From the NCBI GenBank assembly GCA_963752475.1, contig CAVVYR010000014.1, positions 1-64,000 of the forward strand: a stretch of DNA of 64,000 nt, read 5' to 3'. This DNA comes from an uncultured Chloroflexia bacterium. GTDB taxonomy: Bacteria > Chloroflexota > Limnocylindria > Limnocylindrales > CSP1-4. Below the pieces are notes generated by a model, which was given only the letters and a program-made list of their open reading frames with translations, was not told the DNA's origin and did not search any database. The stretch's first letter is position 1. Every line of letters begins with the position of its first letter. Shown in pieces: positions 1 through 39,658 of the stretch. The position numbers and the translations under genes were made by a program.

Positions 1-483
1 CGTTGGGGAACTGCTCCCACACGCCCAGCGAGAACAGGATGGCCGTGAGCCCCTCGTTGGGCCCTGTGCCGGTGAGGACGAAGTGCCAGCTCGCGTCGTC
101 CACCCCGTCGGTGTCTCATCGTCGATCTCGTGGTACCAGCCGGTCCACGTCGTGCCCTCGGGACCCTCGATGTCCACGGCCCCCCAGGCGACGCAGATGC
201 CGTCTGCGGAGCAGTCCTCGTTGTGGATCAGGTGCTGGGTCCCGTCCAGGCGGGGATCGCTGTAGGTGCTGTCCCAGGCGCCCGGGAGGTCGCGGATCGA
301 CTGCGTGAAACCCAACCCTGGCTGGGCGATGACGGCCATCCCCTCGAGCCGCAGATCTCCCCGGGTGAGGAGCTTCACCCATACGGGCGCATCCTCGAGG
401 TCCTGCCCTGCTGCCACGCCCCCGAGCCCGCCGAACAGCGCCAACATGACCGTCCCGACCAGCGACAGTCGCAGCGTACGCAT
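1..483 (-). CDS. Secreted protein, array paralog 1 (runs off window edge; probable frameshift near 105)
   Basis: Hand translation from ATG 483: MRTLRLSLVGTVMLALFGGLGGVAAGQD...YSDPRLDG...IEGPEGTTWTGW...LTGTGPNEGL. Signal peptide, purine-rich RBS, motifs shared with paralogs 2-4. Missing from the ORF track because there is no stop in the window. Confidence 0.75.
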   Translation of the reverse strand, partial: MRTLRLSLVGTVMLALFGGLGGVAAGQDLEDAPVWVKLLTRGDLRLEGMAVIAQPGLGFTQSIRDLPGAWDSTYSDPRLDGTQHLIHNEDCSADGICVAWGAVDIEGPEGTTWTGWYHEIDDETPTGWTTRAGTSSSPAQGPTRGSRPSCSRWACGSSSPT

Positions 484-934
484 GACATACCCCTCCCATG
501 CGCGGGCCGGGTCCGCCAGTGGCTCGGCGCGGTCCAGGCGGCCAGGGTGTGGGCCGTGCCTCATCGCCTCCCGCTGGCAACCATTGTCCGCCTGACGACA
601 AGGCCACTGGGCCTTCGAGGGTGGTGGATGCGCGTGCGGTGGTGGCGTTGTTTCGCGGCACCGTCGTGATGTCCGGGGGTGCCGCTCACGGTCACGCAGG
701 AGACATGCACCGTCGTGTCGGTGTCTATCCCTGTGTGCGATCTGGCTCGCGGCGCTGTTGTCAGCGTGCAGGAACCGCGATGATGTACCGACCGCAGACG
801 ACCAGTGGTCGATGGTGTCGGGGCAACGACGGCGTGGATCAGTCTGGCTTGCGGCGCTGAGCGCGGGGACTGGTCGGTCGCCGCGAACATCCTCCGCCTT
901 CTTCCGCGCCGCAGGCAGCCGAGACGGCGCGGAT
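484..934. repeat. Conserved intergenic array unit 1
   Basis: Aligns by eye with 2827-3280, 3800-4154 (ends only) and 4762-5203. Confidence 0.9.
502..574 (-). ncRNA. c-di-GMP-II-like riboswitch aptamer, copy 1
   Basis: GCGGG-AGGC-GAUGA-GGCACGGCCC-ACACCCUGG-CCGCC-U-GGACCGCGCC-GA-GCC-ACU-GGCGG-ACCCGG-CCCGC gives P1, P2, kink-turn GA/GA, P3 and a CCGCC/GGCGG pseudoknot; ends 18 nt before the ATG. Confidence 0.7.
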
Positions 935-945
935 GCTTCTATGTC

Positions 946-951
946 TGTCAA
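946..951 (-). promoter_or_regulatory. TTGACA -35 box at IS110 end (circle-junction promoter)
   Basis: Perfect TTGACA 11 nt from the core; circularisation gives TTGACA-16nt-GAGACT upstream of the ncRNA and transposase. Confidence 0.6.
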
Positions 952-1993
952 GCCGCTTGGGCGCAGTCCTCGAGGAGCCGGAAGAGCCGCCGTGCGACGA
1001 ACCGCTTGAGACAGCGCTTGATCTCCCGGTCGCTCCGGCCCTCCGCTCGGCGACGCGCGGCATAGGCCCGGGTCTCCGGATCGTGGGGTGAGTCCCGAGA
1101 GCACGATCGTGTGCAGCGCTCGGTTGAGCTGACGGTCGCCGGCGCGGTTGAGTCGATGGCGGACCGCGGCCCGACGAGGCGGGGATGGGCGCCACGCCCG
1201 CGAGCATCGCGAAGGCCGCCTCGGAACGGATGCGACCGGCATGGGACCAGGCGTTTAGGATGGCCGCCGCGGTGATGACCCCGACGCCGGGCTCGGCCAG
1301 GAGCTCGGGTCGCTCCTGCTGCACGATGACCTCGAGCGCCGCCTCCAGGTCGGCCGCTTCGGCCTCGCAGGCGAGGGCCCGCCGCGCCGTGGAGCGCAGG
1401 GCAGAGATCGTCGCGCGGTGTTCGACCGACTGTGCGTGACCGATGCGCAGCCGCGCACAACGGAGGACCAGCGCGTGGGTGCCCAGGTGGCGAAACCGGC
1501 CGCGGAGGGCCTCGGGTGCGTTGACCACGAGCGCCTGGAGCGCGGAGACCGCCCGCGTCCGCTCGACCACCGCAGCCTGGCGCGTCGCGAGCAGCACGCG
1601 CAGGGCCTCCGGCCGCCACGTCGCCGTGGCTGGGCGAGGTACTCGCGTAGAGCGCCTCGCGGGCAGCGCGGATCGCGTCGAGCTCGTCGCTCTTGGCGCC
1701 GTTGCGACGGGCGGGTCGCCTCGGGCGGTCGATCTCGACGACCCACTCGCCCTGCTCGAGCAGGTAGGTCGTGAGCCCGGCACCGAAACTGCCCGTGCCC
1801 TCGACCGCCCAGACCCGACGGTCAGGGGCACGTCGACGAGCGAAGGCCAGGACGCGCTTGGCGCCGAAGGCGTCCGAGGGACCGCCAGATGGGCCATGGC
1901 ACCACCGGTCGGGGTCACGACCGCGGCGGTGTGCGAGGCCTTGTGGGTGTCGACCCCGATGACGGCGTCGATCCGGTCTGCGAGCATGGTCAT
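948..1993 (-). CDS. IS110 DEDD transposase/recombinase (several frameshifts)
   Basis: MTMLADRIDAVIGVDTHK, WAVEGTGSFG, KSDELDA, PGVGVITAA, FAMLAGVAPIPASSG and CLKRFVARRLFRLL are spread over three frames; RBS GGAGG before ATG 1993. Confidence 0.88.
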
Positions 1994-2039
1994 GGTTGCC
2001 CTCCTGTGAGACGGTGTGGTGACCGTGGTCGGCGTCGGG

Positions 2040-2260
2040 CTGGGCCATGTCATCCGGGCTGGCAGGACTGTGATGGGTCACACCCCTGACGGGGTGGACA
2101 GGCTTCTGATCAGGCCAACGCCTCGGCGTCCCAGGCCGGCGTCGACAGCGAACGGGCAGACGGATCCGCGCAAGGGCATCCCGAAGCCATGCTGCGAGAG
2201 CCAATGGGGTTACGAGTCATGCCTGTCCACTGTCGCCGCCAGTCTGGGCCCCCGCGATGG
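2040..2260 (-). ncRNA. Putative IS110 bridge RNA (ends approximate)
   Basis: Non-coding IS end containing matches to the left target (2204-2213), right target (2164-2171), left donor (2102-2107) and right donor (2067-2073), in the expected order and orientation. Confidence 0.8.
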
Positions 2261-2285
2261 GGAGGACACCAGTCTCACAATGGGG

Positions 2286-2826
2286 TTACTCGGCGGGTGG
2301 CTCCCCGTCCGTCGTGCCTGGGATATCGCCTACGTAGATGACCCCATGGGTCTCGAGCTCGTTCGTGTCGTACAGGTCCTGCTTGACGTGGATGAGGTAC
2401 GCGAGTCCGTCGTATCCGCCCTCGCCCTCAAGGAACCCGAGGACCTTCCAGCCCATCGTGCGTTCGTAGCCACCACGCCACTCCCCGGACCAGCGGCCAT
2501 CGTCGTTCACCAGTTCCACCGGACCGGAGGTGATGGTGACGGAGCCGGGGAACTGTATTGGACTGACCCAGCATCGAGAGCGTGCCGTCCACGCGAGGGT
2601 CGGAGGCGTTGGCCAGGAACTTCCATCGCAGACCCTCGGTCCGCTGGACCCCGCGTTCGAGCGAGACGGTCGGTGCCTCGCCATGGTCGATCCACACGAT
2701 GCTGCCGGTGACGGCGTCGGCTCGGGCCAGAGTTCGAGTCTCGTCCTGCGCCACGACCGCGCTCACGAACCCACTGAGCAACGCCAAGGTGAAGACCGCG
2801 GTCAAAGACAGTCGCAAGGTACGCAT
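2286..2826 (-). CDS. Secreted protein, array paralog 2 (one frameshift near 2550)
   Basis: MRTLRLSLTAVFTLALLSG...ASDPRVDG joined to ...LVNDDGRWSGEW...LEGEGGYDGL...GVIYVGDIPG...PPAE*. Confidence 0.8.
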
Positions 2827-3280
2827 CTGCTCCCCCTCAAGCGCGGGCCGGGTTCGCCAGTGGCTCAGCGCGGTCCAGGCGGCCATAATCACGGGCCGCG
2901 CTTCATCGCCTCACGCTAGGGACCATTGTCCGCCTCGCGACAAGGCCACGGGGCGTTCGAGGGCGGTCGGAGGCGCTGTTTCGCGGCACCGTCTTTCCGT
3001 CGGTGTGGGTGCCGCTCACGCCGGCGCAAGGCACCGTCGCGTCTATCGCTGTGTGGATCTGGCTCGCGGCGCTGTCTCAGCGTGCAGGAACTGCCGGATC
3101 ACGCGAGGACACGACCGCAGACGACCAGTGGCTCGATGGTGTCGGAGTGGATGGCTGTATGGGTCGATCAGGCTCGCGGCACCGTAGGGCGGGGGGGTGG
3201 ACGCATCCTGGGCTGGTCGGCTGCCGCGAGCGTCCTCCGCCTTCTTCAGCGCCGCAGGCAGCCGAGGCGGCGCAGTGGGG
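2827..3280. repeat. Conserved intergenic array unit 2
   Basis: 2812-3185 is near-identical to 4747-5120. Confidence 0.92.
2843..2916 (-). ncRNA. c-di-GMP-II-like riboswitch aptamer, copy 2
   Basis: Same architecture; P3 AGCGCGG/CCGCGCU covaries relative to copy 1. Confidence 0.7.
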
Positions 3281-3799
3281 CTACTCGGCGGACGGTTCCA
3301 CCGGGTCAGGCAGGGGGGTCGCTCGCCTTCGAAGATCTTGGCCCTCGCATCCTTCAGACGTACATTGGAGGACGGCGACGAGTCCTTCGTAGGCTCCCTC
3401 ACCGAAGTAGGTGTCCCAGCCGACACCACGCCCGTCCACATACTGCATCGTCGTGGCACCTCCGGTCCACGCACCGTCGGGTCCCTCGAGCCGAATCGTG
3501 GTCTGCCCCATGATGCCCCGGTCGCCCCCTTCGCCCGCATAGGAGTTGAAGTTCATGATGCTGTGCTTCACCGCTGGGAGCCGGGGGTCACTCCACTCGT
3601 AGGTCTCGGTGATGAGCATGCCCCGTCCGTAGTTGACGTCACCCTCGCTCGTGAACTCCATCTGCGAGTCGTCCCAGACCGATCGATGACCGTGCCTGGG
3701 GTGACAGGGTTCTACGGCCTCGGACTGGGCCGCAGCACCAAGACTGCCGACCAACATCAGGCTGACCGCTCCAACCATGGCTAGTCGCAACGCACGCAT
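3281..3799 (-). CDS. Secreted protein, array paralog 3
   Basis: MRALRLAMVGAVSLMLVGSLGAAAQ...WSDPRLP...LEGPDGAWTG...FGEGAYEGL...LPDPVEPSAE*. Confidence 0.82.
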   Translation of the reverse strand: MRALRLAMVGAVSLMLVGSLGAAAQSEAVEPCHPRHGHRSVWDDSQMEFTSEGDVNYGRGMLITETYEWSDPRLPAVKHSIMNFNSYAGEGGDRGIMGQTTIRLEGPDGAWTGGATTMQYVDGRGVGWDTYFGEGAYEGLVAVLQCTSEGCEGQDLRRRATPLPDPVEPSAE

Positions 3800-4154
3800 G
3801 TATGACCCCCCTTCACTCACGCGGACCGGGTTCGCCAGTGGCTCGGCGCGGCCCAGGCGGCCAGTGCTGGGGCCGAGCGTCGTCGCCTCCCGCTATCGAC
3901 CATTCTCCTCCCCGCGTCTATCGGCCACCTTGACGTGCTCGACGACGCCGTTCGAGGTCTGCGTGAGCGCCGCGACTACGGGTTGAGAGACAGGGGCAGA
4001 ACCCGTCGTACAGGGGTCTGTCGGTGTATGGGGCTGGCTCGCGGCGCTGAGCGTGGGGCCTGCTCGGAGCGCGGATGCACCGCTGGCTGGTCGGTCGCCG
4101 CGAACGTCCTCCGCCTTCTTCAGCGCCGCAGGCAGCCGAGGCGGCGCGATGGGG
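3800..4154. repeat. Array unit 3 (conserved ends, different middle)
   Basis: Leader 3821-3905 and 3' element ~4030-4157 match the other units; ~3910-4025 does not. Confidence 0.85.
3821..3893 (-). ncRNA. c-di-GMP-II-like riboswitch aptamer, copy 3
   Basis: GCGGG-AGGC-GACGA...UGG-CCGCC-U...GA-GCC-ACU-GGCGA-ACCCGG-UCCGC. Confidence 0.65.
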
Positions 4155-4761
4155 CTACTCCTCGACGGGAGCCTCCGCCGCGACCTCCTCCGACGGCATC
4201 GCCCACGGCAGCTCGCCGAGCGGCGGGGGCGGGACGCCCTCGTAGACGAGCCCGTTGAAGTCGAGCTCGCCCCCGAGCGGTCCCACACCATGCAGCAGGA
4301 ACGTGAAGCCCTCGTAAGCTCCGTGGCCGGTGAAGGTCTTGAGCAGGGTCATGAGCGACTGACCTCCCGGCTGCTCCGGGTGATGGGTGCCCCAGACCCA
4401 GCCGGTCCAGGAGCCATCGGGACCCGTCGATCTCCTCGGTGTTCCAGAAGACGCAGGTGTCGTCCGTCTCTCCGAAGCAGTCGTCCCCGAACGTACCGCG
4501 CAGGCTACCGCTGACGCGAGGGTCGCTGGCCTCGAATCACAGCCGTATCCATGCCCCTGAACCAGGAATGGCCATCTCCCTCATCGCCCCAGTGGTCTGG
4601 CTGTCGTCCTGCCAGCAGTTCGTCTCGATCACGGACGCCACCCAGGCGAAGTCAGGACCGGTCCCGATCTCCTGCTCCGGCTGGGCTACGACGCTCGCAG
4701 CCGATGTGACAACCAAGGCTGCAATGGCCGTTGCCACCAGGGACATTCGCAAGGTACGCAT
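4155..4761 (-). CDS. Secreted protein, array paralog 4 (frameshifted)
   Basis: MRTLRMSLVATAIAALVV... / FEASDPRVSG...PDGSWTGW / FTGHGAYEGF...GLVYEGVPPP...PVEE* across frames. Confidence 0.75.
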
Positions 4762-5203
4762 CTGCTCCCCCTCATGCGCGGGCCGGGTTCGCCAGTGGCT
4801 CAGCGCGGTCCAGGCGGCCATGATCACGGGCCGCGCTTCATCGCCTCCCGCTAGGGACCATTGTCCGCCTCGCGACAAGGCCACGGGGCGTTCGAGGGCG
4901 GTCGGAGGCGCTGTTTCGCGGCACCGTCTTTCCGTCGGTGTGGGTGCCGCTCACGCCGGAGCAAGGCACCGTCGCGTCTATCGCTGTGTGGATCTGGCTC
5001 GCGGCGCTGTCTCAGCGTGCAGGAACTGCCGGGATCACGCCAGGACACGACCGCAGACGACCAGTGGTTCGATGGTGTCGGAGTGGTTGGCGGTATGGGT
5101 GATCATGCTCGCGGCACCGTCAGGCCGAGCGAGGGGCCTGGTCGTATCGTGGGCTGGTCGGTCGCCGCGACCATCCGCAGGCAGCAGAGGCGGCGGAACG
5201 GGG
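4762..5203. repeat. Conserved intergenic array unit 4
   Basis: Near-identical to unit 2; has a short deletion in the 3' element. Confidence 0.92.
4778..4851 (-). ncRNA. c-di-GMP-II-like riboswitch aptamer, copy 4
   Basis: Two substitutions relative to copy 2; intact P1 GCGGG/CCCGC. Confidence 0.7.
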
Positions 5204-5248
5204 TTACTCGGGCACCTCGACCGGGTCTGGGTACTCGGGCAGCACGCC
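5204..5248 (-). pseudogene. C-terminal remnant of a fifth array paralog
   Basis: Reads GVLPEYPDPVEVPE* followed by CCCC, matching the paralog 3 end LPDPVEPSAE*. Confidence 0.7.
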
Positions 5249-5250
5249 GG

Positions 5251-5580
5251 TCCGAGCAGCCGAGTTACTTCGAGGCCGACCTCGTGAAGATCAAGGGCCT
5301 GCTCCATGACTGGAAGATGTTGTGTAATAAGGCCACCCCAGAGGAGCGTCAGGACATCGTCGGGGCGTTCTTTGGCGAGGTCCGTGTGCGCGACAAGACC
5401 ATCGTGTCGGCCACGCTCGCTGACCCCGCATACGCGCCGCTCATCGCCAGTTCTGAGGCGCGGCGCCTGCGGCTGGTCACGCCAGCAGGCGACGAGGACG
5501 AACAGGTTGGGCTGGCGCCCCCGGACGGGCGCGGGGCGCTAACTGCCAAACCCGAGGAGAAGCTGGCGGCGTACCTGTAG
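5251..5580 (+). pseudogene. C-terminal fragment of a probable large serine recombinase
   Basis: LLHDWKMLCNKATPEERQDIVGAFFGEVRVRDKTI resembles recombinase C-termini; reads through a copy of the tRNA-Arg 3' end; no catalytic domain present. Confidence 0.55.
5509..5528. repeat. att-like 20-bp duplicate of the tRNA-Arg 3' end
   Basis: gggctggcgcccccggacgg is identical to 7937-7956. Confidence 0.85.
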
Positions 5581-5635
5581 GTCAACGGTATCTGGGCTGG
5601 GACTGCTGTTGATGGTTGGAGCCGTCGTGCTCGTG

Positions 5636-5758
5636 TCACCCCACCCGGCGACTCGATGAGTCTCTCGACTTGTCCCCCAGGTCACCCACGGCCGCCACGA
5701 GCTCGGTGAACGGTGCGCTGTCCCCTTCCTGGGCCATGACGACGAGCTGCCGATCCAC
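5636..5758 (-). pseudogene. Truncated ECF sigma factor N-terminus
   Basis: VDRQLVVMAQEGDSAPFTELVAA resembles the N-termini of both ECF sigmas in this window. Confidence 0.5.
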
Positions 5759-5900
5759 GGTTCGAGCCGGTCTCTCTGCGCGCCAGACACCTTGCGAGTC
5801 GCCCGAAACCCGAACTGGCCCAACGCCGACAACGAAGATGGAACCCGACTGCCTTGGAGCGGGCTCTATGGTTCGAGAGCGGCCAAGTGGGCCGCCGCTA

Positions 5901-6461
5901 GTGGAGACCCGATGCAGCGGACTCGTCGAACGGGCGATGGCGGGTGATCGGGACGCGTTCACGGAGCTGGGACGCGGCCAGATCGACCGGCTCTACGCCA
6001 TCGCACGGCTCATCCTCCGGGACGACGACCGGGCTCATGACGCCACCCAGGAGGCCCTCATCGGCGCCTGGCGTGACCTCGCGGGCCTGCGCGATCCCGA
6101 CAAGTTCGAGGCGTGGATCCGACGCCTGCTCGTCAACGCGTGCTATCGCGAAGCACGCAAGGAGAAGCGGCGCACGCGCGCGGAAAGCCAGGTTCGGCCC
6201 ATCGATACCGAGTCTGCCGACCCCGCACACGCGATCGCCGATCGTGACGAGCTCGCGCGCGTGTTCGTCACGCTCGAGCCCGACCAACGGGCGCTGATCG
6301 TTCTCCACTACTACCTGGGGCTGCCGATGCACGAGACCGCCCAGGCCCTGAGCCTGCCGGTCGGCACCGTCAAGTCCCGACTCAATCGCACCAAGATGCA
6401 GATGCGCGCCTCGCTCGAGGCGGACGCGCGGCTGCCATTGCAGGAAGGGGGTCCGGCATGA
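5901..6461 (+). CDS. ECF RNA polymerase sigma factor (start uncertain)
   Basis: AGDRDAFTEL, AHDATQEALIGAWRDL, FEAWIRRLLVN, LPVGTVKSRLNR. Confidence 0.92.
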   Translation: METRCSGLVERAMAGDRDAFTELGRGQIDRLYAIARLILRDDDRAHDATQEALIGAWRDLAGLRDPDKFEAWIRRLLVNACYREARKEKRRTRAESQVRPIDTESADPAHAIADRDELARVFVTLEPDQRALIVLHYYLGLPMHETAQALSLPVGTVKSRLNRTKMQMRASLEADARLPLQEGGPA

Positions 6462-7758
6462 GCGTCAACGACGCACCCGATGTCAACCTGGACCGTCTCC
6501 TGACCGACTGGCTCGAAGCGGACGCCGCCCCCCGGGCGCCCGAGAGCCTCGAGACTGCATTCGTCGAGGGTGTCGCGAGCACGCGACAGCGACCCGCATG
6601 GGCCACCACGGAAAGGTGGATCTCCATGGAAACCCGCGCCCAGCTCGGGGTCATGCCCCGCGTGCTCATCATCCTGCTCACTATCGCGCTCCTGGCCTCG
6701 GCGCCCTCGGCGGCTACGCCTCGGCAGCAACCTCGTCAAGGCCGAAGACGGTGGTGCGGACACTGTGCTCACCTACGCCTCGCCAGCCGGGCGTCATCTA
6801 CAGCATCCGACCGACGGGACCGGCGAGCCAGTCCGCCTGACGGGCGACGACGAGGTCGCCTTCACCTTCGCCTGGTCGCCCGACGGGACGCGCTTCGCCT
6901 ACGAGTCATGGCCCGACCCTAGGACGGCCCGGCCACGATCATGGTCCGGGACGCCGACGGCTCCGACCCCGTCGCGATCAGCGAGCCGTTCGAGGCGCCG
7001 ACCGGCGCGTCGCGCGGCCCTACCTGGCCTGGAGCCCCGATGGCTCGAGGGTCCTCTGCTGGGCCCCTGGGCTCGACGTCGTCGACGACGGACGGGGTGC
7101 GGCAACCCGGGCACGTTCTGCGGCCAGCGGATCTGGAGCGCGCCCAGCGACGGCAGCGAGCCGGCCCAGGTCATCGGTGATCCGGCACTCGATGCGCGCT
7201 CGCCACTGTGGACGCCGGATGGCGAGACCATCATCTTCGCCGGCTCGGAAGGCAACGGAGGTCGTCTACGGCATCTACCGCATGGACGCCGATGGCGCGA
7301 ACGTCGAGCGGATCGGCGACCTGGGCGGCAGCGAGTACGCCTTCGACCGACATGCCATCTCTCCCGATGGAACAACGTTGGCCGTGGTCCAGCGGCAACG
7401 GGCTGCACGACCTCTACCTCGTGGACCTCGCGACGGGTGAGGAGACGCTCATCGCCGGCTCGGATGGGGACGAGGTGGACCCGTACTGGTCCCCCGATGG
7501 CTCGATGATCGCCTTCACGGGCTTGGCGGCTTCAACGACCCAGCACAGGCGATGCTCTACGACGTGGCCTCGGGAGAGGTCATCTCGCTCGGCACCGAGC
7601 TCTACGTCAAGGGTTGGTCGCCGGACAGCCGCTCCATCGTCAGCGGTGAGAACGGAGTCGTGACCGTGGTGGATGTGACCGACCCGACGGCGCCGGTGGT
7701 GACCGAGGTCGAGGGCCTCACCGAAGCCTACGAGCCCGGCTACCAACCACTCCCCTGA
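6458..7758 (+). CDS. Putative anti-sigma factor with TM segment and TolB-like PD40 propeller (frameshifted)
   Basis: ATGA overlap with the sigma stop; hydrophobic segment; repeated WSPDG/WTPDG/ISPDG motifs across frames. Confidence 0.7.
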
Positions 7759-7940: not shown

Positions 7941-8016
7941 TGGCGCCCCCGGACGGATTCGAACCGCCGACGCGCACCTTAGGAGAGTGCCGCTCTATCC
8001 ACTGAGCTACGGGGGC
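7941..8016 (-). tRNA. tRNA-Arg(CCT)
   Basis: 76-nt cloverleaf GCCCCCGTAGCTCAGTGGATAGAGC...CTCCTAA...GGTTCGAATCC...GCCA. Confidence 0.97.
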
Positions 8017-21900: not shown

Positions 21901-22971
21901 TTAGAGGGTGGCGCCGCCGTATCGGATCTCCAGCTCGATAAGGCGATCGTCGCCGTTGCCGATACTCGGAACGGTGAGTGTATCGCTCGGCTTGCTCGGG
22001 GAGAGAGCGTCGTACTGGGCGACGTCGCTGAATGCGGCGACATAGTCCACGATCGCGCTGCCATGGGTCGTCCCAGCGATATCGCGGAACTCGTTGTAGC
22101 CGTCGTGGTAGCTCCCCGGGATGTCCTTGAACCACTGGTGGTACCCGCCCGTCTTCGTGTCCACGACGAGGCCGCCCGTCTCCAATGTGACTGCCTCGAT
22201 GACGTGGCTTCCCTCACCCCACGACCCGAACTGGACCGGCGAAGTGGGGTTGGCGGCGATGGGATACCGACCCATCACGATGGTGTCGCCCTTGCTGGGC
22301 ATGGTGTCGCCATCGCTGTCGATGATCTTGGCGATCATCACGTCACCGGCGTTGAACGTGTGGCTTTCGTCGAGGTCCGAGTAGGCGATGACCAGGGTCT
22401 TGGGCTCAGGTGTCGGCGCGGGTGCCGGAGGTGCCGGTGGCGCCGGTGGCGCGAACACCGCCCTCGGTAGCTCGCAGCGCACCATCGGTCCGTGTCCCGT
22501 GCCCTGCGCACAGAGGTCCACGCCGATCCCGCCGTCGATCCTGTCGCTGCCGCCACCACCGCCGAGGATGTCCGGTCCGGCCTGGCCGGCGAGGAAGTCA
22601 TTCTGCGGGCCTCCGAAGAGTCGGTCGATGCCGGAGCCGCCGAAGAGGCGGTCTCGACCAGCCTGGCCGATGAGCTTGTCGTTGCCGGCGTTGCCCACGA
22701 GCTTGTCGTTGCCGGCCCCACCGCAGATGGTGTCGCCACCACCCAGGCCGATGATGATGTCGTTGCCTCCGAGTCCGGCGATGATGTCGCGCTTGGCGGT
22801 GCCGCGAATGACGTCGTTGCCCTTGGTGCCGACCCTCGTAGCCACCTTGCCATCGCACGTGACCTTCTTCTTGGCGGCCGGTTCGACGTCAGTGGCGAGA
22901 GCCGTCGTGGTGAGGGCCACAGTAAGAGCCGCCGATACGAGGATGGTGAAGATCCGTCGGGTCCCGGTCAT
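21901..22971 (-). CDS. Secreted protein with RTX/hemolysin-type Ca-binding repeats
   Basis: Signal peptide; GLGGND, GGAGND, GNAGND, GGSGID nonapeptides; Pro-rich linker. Confidence 0.88.
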   Translation of the reverse strand: MTGTRRIFTILVSAALTVALTTTALATDVEPAAKKKVTCDGKVATRVGTKGNDVIRGTAKRDIIAGLGGNDIIIGLGGGDTICGGAGNDKLVGNAGNDKLIGQAGRDRLFGGSGIDRLFGGPQNDFLAGQAGPDILGGGGGSDRIDGGIGVDLCAQGTGHGPMVRCELPRAVFAPPAPPAPPAPAPTPEPKTLVIAYSDLDESHTFNAGDVMIAKIIDSDGDTMPSKGDTIVMGRYPIAANPTSPVQFGSWGEGSHVIEAVTLETGGLVVDTKTGGYHQWFKDIPGSYHDGYNEFRDIAGTTHGSAIVDYVAAFSDVAQYDALSPSKPSDTLTVPSIGNGDDRLIELEIRYGGATL

Positions 22972-23176: not shown

Positions 23177-23196
23177 CACACATCCCCTTCGTTCAT

Positions 23197-23270
23197 GCGG
23201 GCCGGGTGCGCCAGTTGGCTCGGCACGGGCCTGGCGGCCATGATTAGGGCCGTGGGTCTTCGCCTCCCGC
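23197..23270 (-). ncRNA. c-di-GMP-II-like riboswitch aptamer, copy 5
   Basis: GCGGG-AGGC-GAAGA-CCCACGGCCC...UGG-CCGCC-A-GGCCCGUGCC-GA-GCC-AACU-GGCGC-ACCCGG-CCCGC; CACGG/CCGUG covariation. Confidence 0.62.
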
Positions 23271-23320
23271 TAACGTCACCATTGTCCCGCCGGTGTCTAC
23301 GAACGCACCTACCCCCTTCG

Positions 23321-38722: not shown

Positions 38723-39658
38723 TCAGGCGCGCGGGTGGGCCCGCGCGTAGACCTGTCGGATGCGTTCTCCGGTGATGTGTGTATACAGCTGTGTGGTGGT
38801 GATGCTGGCGTGCCCCAGGAGCTCCTGGACCACGCGCAGATCGGCCCCGCCCTCGAGCAGGTGTGTAGCGAAACTATGCCGCAACGTGTGCGGAGTGACA
38901 CGCGCGGACAGTCCGGCCTTGGCGGCGGCGGCTCGAAGGATGCGCCAGGCGGACATCCGATCGAGTCGCCGGCCCCGGGCTGAGGTGAATAGCGGTTCGC
39001 GGCCGAGCTGTGCCGGATCGACCCCTTCGCGGCCCTCGTCACGTGCCTCGAGGTAACGCTCGATGGCCTCCTGCGCCAGGTCGCCGACCGGCACCAGCCG
39101 CTCCTTGTCACCCTTGCCGATGACGCGCACGAACCCGCCCGCGTAGCGGTCTTCCCGATCGAGGCCCGTGGCTTCGCTCACGCGCAGCCCAGCCGCATAG
39201 AGCAGCTCGAGGAAGGCCCGGTCCCGCAGCGCCAGCACGCCCTCGCCCTTGGGGGCTTCGAGCAGCGACTCGACCTCCTGCTGGTCAAGCGTGTCGGGCA
39301 GGCGTTGCGACTGGCGGGGCAGGTCGATGAGGGCGGCGATGTCAGCCTCGATGAGCTCCTCCGCATAGCAGAAGCGATAGAAGGCCCGGATCGAGGCGGC
39401 TTTGCGCCTCAGGCTCGTCGGACGCAGCACGCGCGGCGGTCGGGTCATAGCCCCGAGGTAGCCGCGGGCCGGCTCCGCTGATGTGGCCCAGGCTTCGATA
39501 CCCGGCGCGTCACGCCCGAACATGCGCAGGTCGGAGCCGTAGGCGCGGATGGTCGCCACTGCGAGGCCACGCTCGACACGCAGGTAGTCGGCATATGCCT
39601 CCACGGCAAACACGAGGTCGCGCGGCGTTTCGACCATGCTCCCGCCGCCGTCGCTCAT
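38723..39658 (-). CDS. xerD: Chromosomal tyrosine recombinase XerD
   Basis: LYAAGLRVSE, GKGDKERLVP, HTLRHSFATH, LGHASITTTQLY; housekeeping context. Confidence 0.88.
   Translation of the reverse strand: MSDGGGSMVETPRDLVFAVEAYADYLRVERGLAVATIRAYGSDLRMFGRDAPGIEAWATSAEPARGYLGAMTRPPRVLRPTSLRRKAASIRAFYRFCYAEELIEADIAALIDLPRQSQRLPDTLDQQEVESLLEAPKGEGVLALRDRAFLELLYAAGLRVSEATGLDREDRYAGGFVRVIGKGDKERLVPVGDLAQEAIERYLEARDEGREGVDPAQLGREPLFTSARGRRLDRMSAWRILRAAAAKAGLSARVTPHTLRHSFATHLLEGGADLRVVQELLGHASITTTQLYTHITGERIRQVYARAHPRA

Follow-up and report, generated by a model that had tools for sequence, protein, structure and literature searches.

The window analyzed here is the first 64 kb (64,000 nucleotides [nt]) of contig C14 (CAVVYR010000014.1) from the genome assembly of an uncultured Chloroflexia bacterium (GCA_963752475.1; 4.25 Mb in 38 contigs, 88.8% complete and 5.8% contaminated), referred to below as G000. 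The minus strand of positions 1 to 5250 carries four paralogous genes, g1 to g4, each of which is preceded by a riboswitch aptamer, and a 3' remnant (50 nt) of one more gene. We conclude that this array is one cluster of a co-regulated gene family and not a mobile cassette system. The fuller account that we consider probable is that of a tandem, riboswitch-led array of secreted barrel proteins that is part of a genome-wide regulon, is controlled at translation, and was shaped by duplication and gene conversion.

The first-pass annotation of this DNA had described four head-to-tail minus-strand genes and a fifth 3' remnant with MR(T/A)LR(L/M) starts, SDPR(L/V), GxWxG, and GxGxYxG motifs, and GAG-TAR-CCCC 3' ends. 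All of these were recovered, the starts in four of four genes and the 3' signature at every visible gene end. The left edge of the window is the contig end, and g1 (positions 1 to 483, on the minus strand like every feature of the array) consists of its 5' 161 codons from an ATG at 483 and continues past the contig start; its frame is broken near 116 relative to an intact 187-amino-acid copy on contig C31. It is led by aptamer 1 (496 to 580, 57.0 bits), a promoter-like block, TTGTCGTCAGGCGGACAAT, immediately upstream of it (583 to 601), and non-coding spacer 1 (581 to 932), which is 79 to 80% like spacers 2 and 4. An IS110-family insertion sequence (IS) at about 933 to 2279, directly after the GAGTAACCCCAT of g2 and with its transposase in at least three frames, separates g2 from the g1 spacer. 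The g2 gene (2286 to 2826) has one frame break near 2550 to 2563 and is led by aptamer 2 (2835 to 2922, 65.1 bits) and spacer 2 (2923 to 3280). The g3 gene (3281 to 3799) has an open frame of 172 amino acids with two local, compensated frame disruptions relative to orthologs that are 81 to 95% identical; it is led by aptamer 3 (3815 to 3899, 61.7 bits) and by spacer 3 (3900 to 4154), which is shorter and lacks about 100 nt found in the other spacers. The g4 gene (4155 to 4761) is frame-broken at two or more places (near 4540 and 4435) and is led by aptamer 4 (4772 to 4857, 69.8 bits) and spacer 4 (4858 to 5195), which includes a promoter-like block at 4860 to 4878. The remnant of the fifth gene (about 5196 to 5247) reads ...LPEYPDPVEVPE-stop (PDPVEVPE-stop), followed by CCCC. 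The full spacers between genes are 434, 355, and 454 nt long, and that of g1 is about 446 nt when measured from the end of the inserted IS110-family element; each of the four terminates in one aptamer.

A riboswitch in front of each gene had been proposed from the sequence, and matches to Rfam family RF03170 (c-di-GMP-II-GCG; c-di-GMP, cyclic di-GMP) were found before g1 to g4. The four matches score 57.0 to 69.8 bits (E values of 1e-8 to 1e-11; gathering cut-off, 47.9 bits), cover the full model (positions 1 to 85), and lie on the gene strand in the 5' leader, with the start codon 9 to 13 nt (g1, g2, and g4) or 16 nt (g3) past the aptamer end. RF03170 belongs to Rfam clan CL00127 together with c-di-GMP-II, RF01786. 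The whole genome contains 35 RF03170 matches, 33 of them above the cut-off. All 32 matches shared with the parent model RF01786 score lower on the parent, whose cut-off is reached by 1 of the 32, an assignment to the variant that is based on covariance-model scores and not on the individual ligand-contact nucleotides that name it. In an alignment of 37 aptamers (28 from G000 and 9 from relatives), 81.4% of cells were paired under the Rfam structure with its pseudoknot, compared to 33 to 41% when partners were slid by 1 to 3 columns. Compensatory changes on both sides were found in 6 of the 8 pairs of helix P3, while P2 (96% paired) and the pseudoknot (99% paired) were almost invariant. The six outermost P1 pairs of the model are mostly unpaired here, with outer P1 paired at 66% overall. 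On the basis of the pairing relative to the slid controls, the compensation in P3, and the unpaired outer P1, we conclude that these are genuine aptamers with a short, 5-bp P1. The leaders therefore keep P2, P3, inner P1, and the pseudoknot of RF03170, but differ from its model in outer P1 and are present in 35 copies in G000 and up to 47 in the genus. The presence of one riboswitch class before every gene makes the suggested co-regulation by one ligand plausible.

The anatomy of the units is compact. A promoter-like block of about 20 nt, T[G/T]G[A/T]CG-N7/8-GA[G/C]AAT, immediately precedes the aptamer, with constant spacing, in 26 of the 35 units in the genome; the window form is TTGTCGCGAGGCGGACAAT. 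GAGAAT ends about 7 nt ahead of a conserved AGCGGG, where the pairing of P1 begins; for this reason it is probably a -10-like element from which transcription would start at the aptamer. The loose form of the pattern has 196 matches genome-wide versus about 135 by chance (a hand estimate) and therefore does not mark promoters in general. Downstream of P1, after a gap of 1 to 10 nt, comes a Shine-Dalgarno sequence of the GGGGGA type, and the ATG follows 8 to 18 nt past the 3' strand of the aptamer; across the genome, 33 of the 35 units have their start codon between -5 and +18 nt relative to the aptamer end. A terminator hairpin would not fit into this interval, so that ligand control likely acts on translation initiation; a terminator scan returned 0 sites. 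In many units, CGCAUG just past P1 is able to pair with CAUGCG at the start codon and thereby enclose the Shine-Dalgarno sequence. In the mechanism that we propose, each gene is its own expression unit composed of promoter-like block, aptamer, Shine-Dalgarno sequence, and ATG. The block would drive transcription from the base of P1, and ligand bound by the aptamer would alter ribosome access. The array would have grown through tandem duplication, with ordinary homologous recombination or gene conversion now and then homogenizing leaders or placing them before other genes. A second conserved block, ...ACCCGCTATTCATGGCGATTCTGGA..., was observed 60 nt upstream of the aptamers of several units on contig C8 (e.g., at 587973, 576301, 580148, and 579384); the window units lack it.

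Several observations weigh against this account. A sigma-70 scan returned 0 sites, and the 7- to 8-nt spacing within the promoter-like block is non-canonical. The start-codon helix was not significant (cognate, -7.1 kcal/mol; shuffled, -5.0 kcal/mol; permutation P = 0.21) in a test that took an incorrect upstream AUG as the start of several units, and minimum free energy (MFE) folds of the aptamer with the start region were no better than shuffles (z of 0.0 to 0.7). Outer P1 departs from the family model as described above. In the assembly, g1, g2, and g4 have broken frames. Fourteen to 15 of the 35 aptamers precede genes outside the family, including two for cytoplasmic-looking SRPBCC-like proteins and one for a methyltransferase, and among about 41 family loci, 17 to 20 have an aptamer and about 21 to 24 do not.

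The family itself is large. Its products carry a typical Sec signal peptide (MRTLRLSLVGT...AAAQ) that is conserved among paralogs, and sequence inspection revealed neither a lipobox nor a twin-arginine motif. The paralogs are 26 to 31% identical and keep the SDPR, GxWxG, and GEGAYEG motifs, in agreement with the earlier description of them as exported paralogs. A nine-member profile gave at least 493 matches, and the named matches listed were all "hypothetical protein" from Candidatus Limnocylindrales or Chloroflexota. A HMMER search of 1.84 billion representatives returned 2805 clusters (50% identity) at an E value of ≤1e-3 and 1549 at ≤1e-10, including two- and three-domain forms. A credible Pfam match was found for 0 of 109 family members, the DUF3224 profile (PF11528) matched 0 of 3 and 0 of 109 members, and sequence searches of the PDB gave no credible match for the family. 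An Atlas neighbor cluster with PF11528 on 17% of its members (score, 0.85) is a lead only.

The fold was predicted with AlphaFold2 from 109 sequences for an ortholog of g3, P0039, the window g3 being frame-disrupted. The model has nine strands and a predicted local distance difference test score of 88.7; confidence is low in the signal peptide. The best VIA-align matches were both DUF3224 structures, 2q03_B (Z of 13.9, root mean square deviation of 2.2 Å over 118 residues) and 2ooj_B (Z of 12.8), and the model has the eight-stranded antiparallel barrel of DUF3224. These were followed by pyocyanin demethylase 5k21_A (Z of 10.7) and by dirigent proteins, allene oxide cyclase, and AbyU-type cyclases (Z of 9 to 10), while Foldseek against the PDB gave no match at an E value of ≤0.001. 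The prediction is thus a beta-barrel of eight to nine strands that is nearest to DUF3224 and resembles the barrels of PodA pyocyanin demethylase, dirigent proteins, allene oxide cyclase, and AbyU-type Diels-Alderases. Unlike DUF3224 barrels, the array family adds a signal peptide, a proline-rich PPAE tail, and the SDPR, GxWxG, and GEGAYEG motifs and has no sequence match in Pfam or the PDB. Since barrels of this kind generally enclose small hydrophobic molecules, secreted small-molecule binding or conversion is our best guess at what the family may do; a shared fold alone gives no function. Nearly all members have a proline-rich C terminus, ...PPxPDPxEPPAE-stop, and lack a hydrophobic segment behind it (e.g., window 3281 to 3320). 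This tail could be a sorting or processing signal, and at the DNA level it runs on into the conserved CCCC and the GCGCCGCCTCGGCTGCCTGCGG block.

Across G000, 20 of the 35 aptamers stand before a family gene. The other targets, which were labeled by reading their sequences and not by Pfam, include two alpha/beta-hydrolase-like proteins with the same signal peptide, several signal-peptide proteins, and a small membrane protein, in addition to those named above, and most of them appear to be further signal-peptide proteins. Another array, on contig C32, consists of four units with short spacers, 729 to 777 nt apart. Because the targets of the regulon are mostly exported proteins, the ligand is probably a cyclic-dinucleotide-like signal that would set the exported-protein repertoire. 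The genome has 7 GGDEF, 3 EAL, and 1 DAC domain matches, and cyclic-dinucleotide signaling is thus available in this organism. To our knowledge, the ligand of the c-di-GMP-II-GCG variant has not been established, and no report of it was found in the literature searched. The NAR 2017 paper does not discuss the variant in its main text, and its supplements may hold gene associations.

Within the genus, the aptamer was found in 34 of 36 other genomes at 1 to 47 copies; high counts occur mostly, but not only, in assemblies of few contigs, and fragmented assemblies may undercount. It was found in 0 of 24 genomes of the sister family, which are 1.0 to 1.4 Mb, and in 41 of 121 genomes of the class (G000 and one unpublished genome, G156, included), with 1 to 18 copies outside the genus. 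Riboswitch classes with unknown ligands are usually solved from the genes under their control. The genus supplies dozens of natural aptamer variants per genome, nearly all before genes for exported proteins, which restricts the candidate ligands to signals of lifestyle or envelope and places many aptamer sequences on hand for binding assays. The densest array, 11 aptamers on one strand within 12 kb, is in G021 (C5:374001-394000), where family and non-family genes are mixed. In G064 (C7:257001-277000), seven family genes lie within 20 kb without a detectable aptamer; therefore, the family is not always riboswitch-led.

The first-pass annotation held that conservation in the array is inverted relative to ordinary paralogs, and this was confirmed. 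Leaders are far more alike (57 to 93%) than the mature coding parts, which score like shuffled sequence (about 0.4 to 0.65 under the same scoring). The spacers of g4 and g2 are 93% identical, including 97 to 98% across 360 nt, and other pairs are 57 to 80% identical. A related claim, that the genes are separated by a constant, structured element of 350 to 450 nt, stood in part: the spacers are indeed 355 to 454 nt long, but their constancy is array-local and uneven. In a BLASTN search of the genome with the g4 spacer, likeness beyond the aptamer was limited to the other window units and C31, and the parts common genome-wide are the 85-nt aptamer and the 20-nt upstream block. A search of positions 1 to 5700 against Rfam at an E value of ≤5 returned the four aptamers and one chance snoRNA row and nothing else. 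Compensatory changes were found in 2 of 77 predicted spacer pairs, with an unfavorable covariation term, and the stop-proximal block of the spacer folded no better than shuffles. Because the spacer has no Rfam match, covariation, or better-than-shuffled fold, the word "structured" is true of the aptamer alone. The spacer also lacks codon GC periodicity and was rejected as a coding sequence on that ground. An origin as a relic of the aptamer (best E value, 0.25) or of a family gene (best E value, 0.09) was rejected as well. Between species, the conserved block is the gene plus its aptamer: the g3 ortholog in G014 is 88% identical over window positions 3251 to 3911, and the similarity ends there.

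The near-identical tract comprises positions 4742 to 5100 and 2807 to 3164, which are 97 to 98% identical over about 360 nt. Over a single stretch of 30 nt, starting 19 nt inside two unrelated coding regions, identity collapses to about 40%, and upstream of the tract it decays to 70 to 80%. The sharp edge inside unrelated coding sequences indicates that a leader was recently copied between units 1.9 kb apart or was duplicated before a different body. The proposal that the array was expanded or shuffled through its constant element is thus borne out to the extent that at least one leader moved before an unrelated body; no dedicated cassette machinery was found. The order and content of the array, which could have been fixed, vary between species. 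In G005, the nearest species (92% identical over a neighboring pair of genes for an extracytoplasmic function [ECF] sigma factor and a PD40 protein), the family gene beside this pair is by eye, without a formal alignment, like a gene on contig C8 of G000 and not like g2 to g4. Concerted evolution was not supported by Mantel tests of leader similarity against array membership (r = 0.12, P = 0.20) or protein similarity (r = 0.11, P = 0.18) on 15 intact units of 20 to 21, with frame-broken units and one of two near-identical duplicates on contig C7 left out.

The right-hand end of the array had been placed at a recombinase fragment and an att-like tRNA copy, and both are present. Positions 5254 to 5529 (plus strand) encode the C-terminal fragment of a large serine recombinase, only its last ~92 residues, fused to the family-gene remnant and 87% identical (80 of 92 residues) to residues 465 to 556 of a 571-amino-acid protein of G005. 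That protein has Resolvase, Recombinase, and zinc-ribbon domains, a set that is incomplete in the window, and the 3' end of its gene overlaps tRNA-Arg. Pfam and PHROGs searches with the fragment alone gave no match, and it was identified only through the G005 homolog. The fragment contains a copy of the tRNA-Arg(CCT) 3' end plus 7 nt (5506 to 5528, 22 of 23 nt identical), and the real tRNA-Arg(CCT) lies 2.4 kb beyond it (7941 to 8016, minus strand), with the genes for the ECF sigma factor and the PD40-repeat protein in between. The right end is the scar of a tRNA-Arg island, the fragment being the tail of an island integrase and not a cassette recombinase. The ECF sigma and PD40 beta-propeller module (5616 to 7663, plus strand) is 75 to 92% identical across the genus and multi-copy, with copies at G000:C31:20801-22721, on G064:C7 (four), and on G009:C2 (three). 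In the IS element between g1 and g2, Transposase_20 scores 33.6 bits (cut-off, 21.3) and DEDD_Tnp_IS110 18 to 19 bits, below its cut-off of 29 and split over frames; with both the N-terminal DEDD and the C-terminal Transposase_20 domains represented, the element was counted as IS110 family. It sits exactly at a GAGTAACCCCAT / CCGCGCC junction that recurs behind every family gene, and it is present in two copies in the metagenome-assembled genome and at a depth of 33 to 46 in salt-marsh contigs versus about 5 for its unique flanks.

As assembled, g1, g2, g4, the IS transposase gene, and the PD40 gene are frame-broken, and long coding-like open reading frames (ORFs) cover 0.07 of the first 8 kb versus 0.7 to 0.95 elsewhere; rpoB is intact. 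Positions 1 to 2673 of C14 recur on C31 (1 to 2689) at 94% identity, the first 600 nt near-identical and the remainder differing by 6 to 12%, and C31 carries an intact g1 and one further unit. Logan short-read contigs of up to 666 nt from four salt-marsh runs of one study, which hold 26 to 30% of the sampled words of the stretch, cover 30 of 30 bins in three runs and 29 in the fourth; they are too short to bridge units, and their joints are no evidence of circles. Two RNA runs contain less than a tenth of these words. They differ from the window by consistent single-base insertions or deletions at 738, 1085, 1166/1167, 1609, 1648, 2086 to 2091, 5918/5921, and 7264, and near-identical pieces across g1, g2, and g4 each have one or two gaps. 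Because the short-read contigs show the same single-base differences, the broken frames are probably the product of consensus errors near a contig end that is rich in repeats, and not of decay. For annotation, this means that frame-broken genes at the ends of long-read contigs need read support before they are labeled pseudogenes.

Other explanations for these features were considered. The roughly 250 nt upstream of the promoter-like block could be a functional RNA or regulatory element in their own right, such as a second leader, a small RNA, or a terminator or insulator, and their 79 to 93% conservation among three array units, matches of 77 to 80% in five genus genomes, and a 7-bp GC hairpin possible in two of four MFE folds of the stop-proximal block would fit such a role. 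We nevertheless judge it very unlikely in view of the Rfam, covariation, and folding results above, because BLASTN did not find this sequence at the other 30 units of the genome and its matches in relatives do not adjoin aptamers. A recombination-driven repertoire would make more of the same tract than we do: the leader (through codon 6) and the 3' end (the last ~10 codons, GAGTAR-CCCC, and a block of ~60 nt) would be homology arms for swapping barrel-coding bodies, as in surface-protein variation loci. The sharp edge before unrelated bodies, the conserved 3' block also found behind family genes on C8, C19, C31, and C32, the mosaic of C14 and C31 on either side of position 600, and the location of family genes at different loci in the closest species, with its C8-like gene, are all in its favor. 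Still, there is one clear tract only, the Mantel tests were null, the comparison is between species and not strains, and the joints in short contigs have sides of 19 to 39 nt within repeats and are uninformative, so that we consider body swapping unlikely. Somewhat more doubtful again is a combined version in which the GCG variant would sense a signal other than c-di-GMP and, in this genus, gate a fast-evolving, recombination-shuffled repertoire of secreted barrels that bind small molecules, with the leader (riboswitch and signal peptide) and the PPAE-stop-CCCC tail as homology arms. If true, such a repertoire would be a ligand-gated combinatorial exoproteome, undescribed for any bacterium.

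Head-to-tail units with a repeated junction, the recombinase fragment and att-like tRNA copy at one end, and an IS110-family element exactly at a unit junction might also suggest an integron-like or other site-specific cassette array, with the constant element as the site and the neighboring recombinase serving it. Like integron arrays, the array here has co-oriented short genes, a recurring junction, and recombinase-related sequence at one end. Unlike them, it has no integron integrase, each unit has its own regulatory leader, and the recombinase fragment comes from a tRNA island. That fragment is a 92-residue tail with no catalytic domain, whose full-length counterpart in G005 abuts tRNA-Arg as an ordinary island integrase. 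G000 has three tyrosine-recombinase (PF00589) and one "Recombinase" domain matches, none of them beside the arrays on C8, C32, C7, and C29, and no integron-type tyrosine recombinase adjoins the window array, the nearest PF00589 match being 33 kb away. Cassettes are promoterless, whereas every unit here has a promoter-like block and a riboswitch, and the long spacer is missing from other arrays. The only attC-like feature is the short GC hairpin in two of four folds, which is no better than shuffles; no attC model was run. The cassette reading is hardly credible, and scarcely less remote is the view that an assembly artifact or a decaying pseudogene cluster accounts for the array or for its repeat structure. 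The low ORF coverage, the frame breaks in three of four genes, the IS transposase gene, and the PD40 gene, and a position at a contig end whose first 2.7 kb recur on C31 could be explained in that way. Units with distinct coding bodies, however, cannot be collapsed or expanded copies, comparable arrays exist in many genus genomes, including the one in G021, the short-read contigs point to consensus errors, rpoB is intact, and intact g3 orthologs exist.

A tandem array within a riboswitch regulon, the account that we prefer, has a described counterpart, although the first-pass annotation had not recognized the array as one that had been described. Rfam already lists the aptamer as a family, and regulons of many riboswitches controlling surface proteins have been published (PMC11477304). 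The nearest described system is the multi-riboswitch second-messenger regulon for surface proteins exemplified by Clostridioides difficile, in which 12 class I and 4 class II c-di-GMP riboswitches control adhesins, pili, and a protease (PMC11477304). In both cases, one second-messenger riboswitch class is present in many copies, each of them ahead of a surface- or secreted-protein gene (PMC11477304). The array differs from the C. difficile regulon in that its aptamer is a variant, about twice as many copies are present, the phylum is different, the units are compact, putative translational platforms and not terminators, and the targets are mostly one unannotated, paralogous family of secreted barrels in tandem arrays. 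We did not find the protein family or the scale of its expansion described in the literature; the searches gave software or survey papers only. Variable surface-lipoprotein families of the Mycoplasma vsp/vlp type have conserved 5' regions. They share with the array tandem genes and a near-identical upstream region and signal peptide before divergent mature parts; unlike them, the array shows no evidence of phase or antigenic switching and no lipobox, and it belongs to an environmental, free-living organism. The analysis brings forward a large unannotated family (2805 clusters) with a confidently predicted barrel fold that is abundant in sediment and salt-marsh Chloroflexota, and it suggests that such arrays should be annotated as riboswitch regulons and not as mobile cassettes.

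Elsewhere in the window, a tyrosine recombinase (PF00589, 153 bits; a 373-amino-acid frame) is encoded at 38771 to 39292 on the minus strand, and a fifth RF03170 aptamer is located at 23191 to 23274 (minus strand, 50.7 bits). The first ATG after this aptamer opens a frame of only 22 codons, and about 220 nt downstream begins a gene for a 356-amino-acid signal-peptide protein with GGxGxD-type calcium-binding repeats (21901 to 22971, minus strand). Across G000, 33 of the 35 aptamers are on the minus strand of their contigs, and 9 of 10 contigs (C1, C4, C5, C7, C8, C11, C14, C29, C31, and C32) have minus-strand aptamers only, though contig orientation should be arbitrary.

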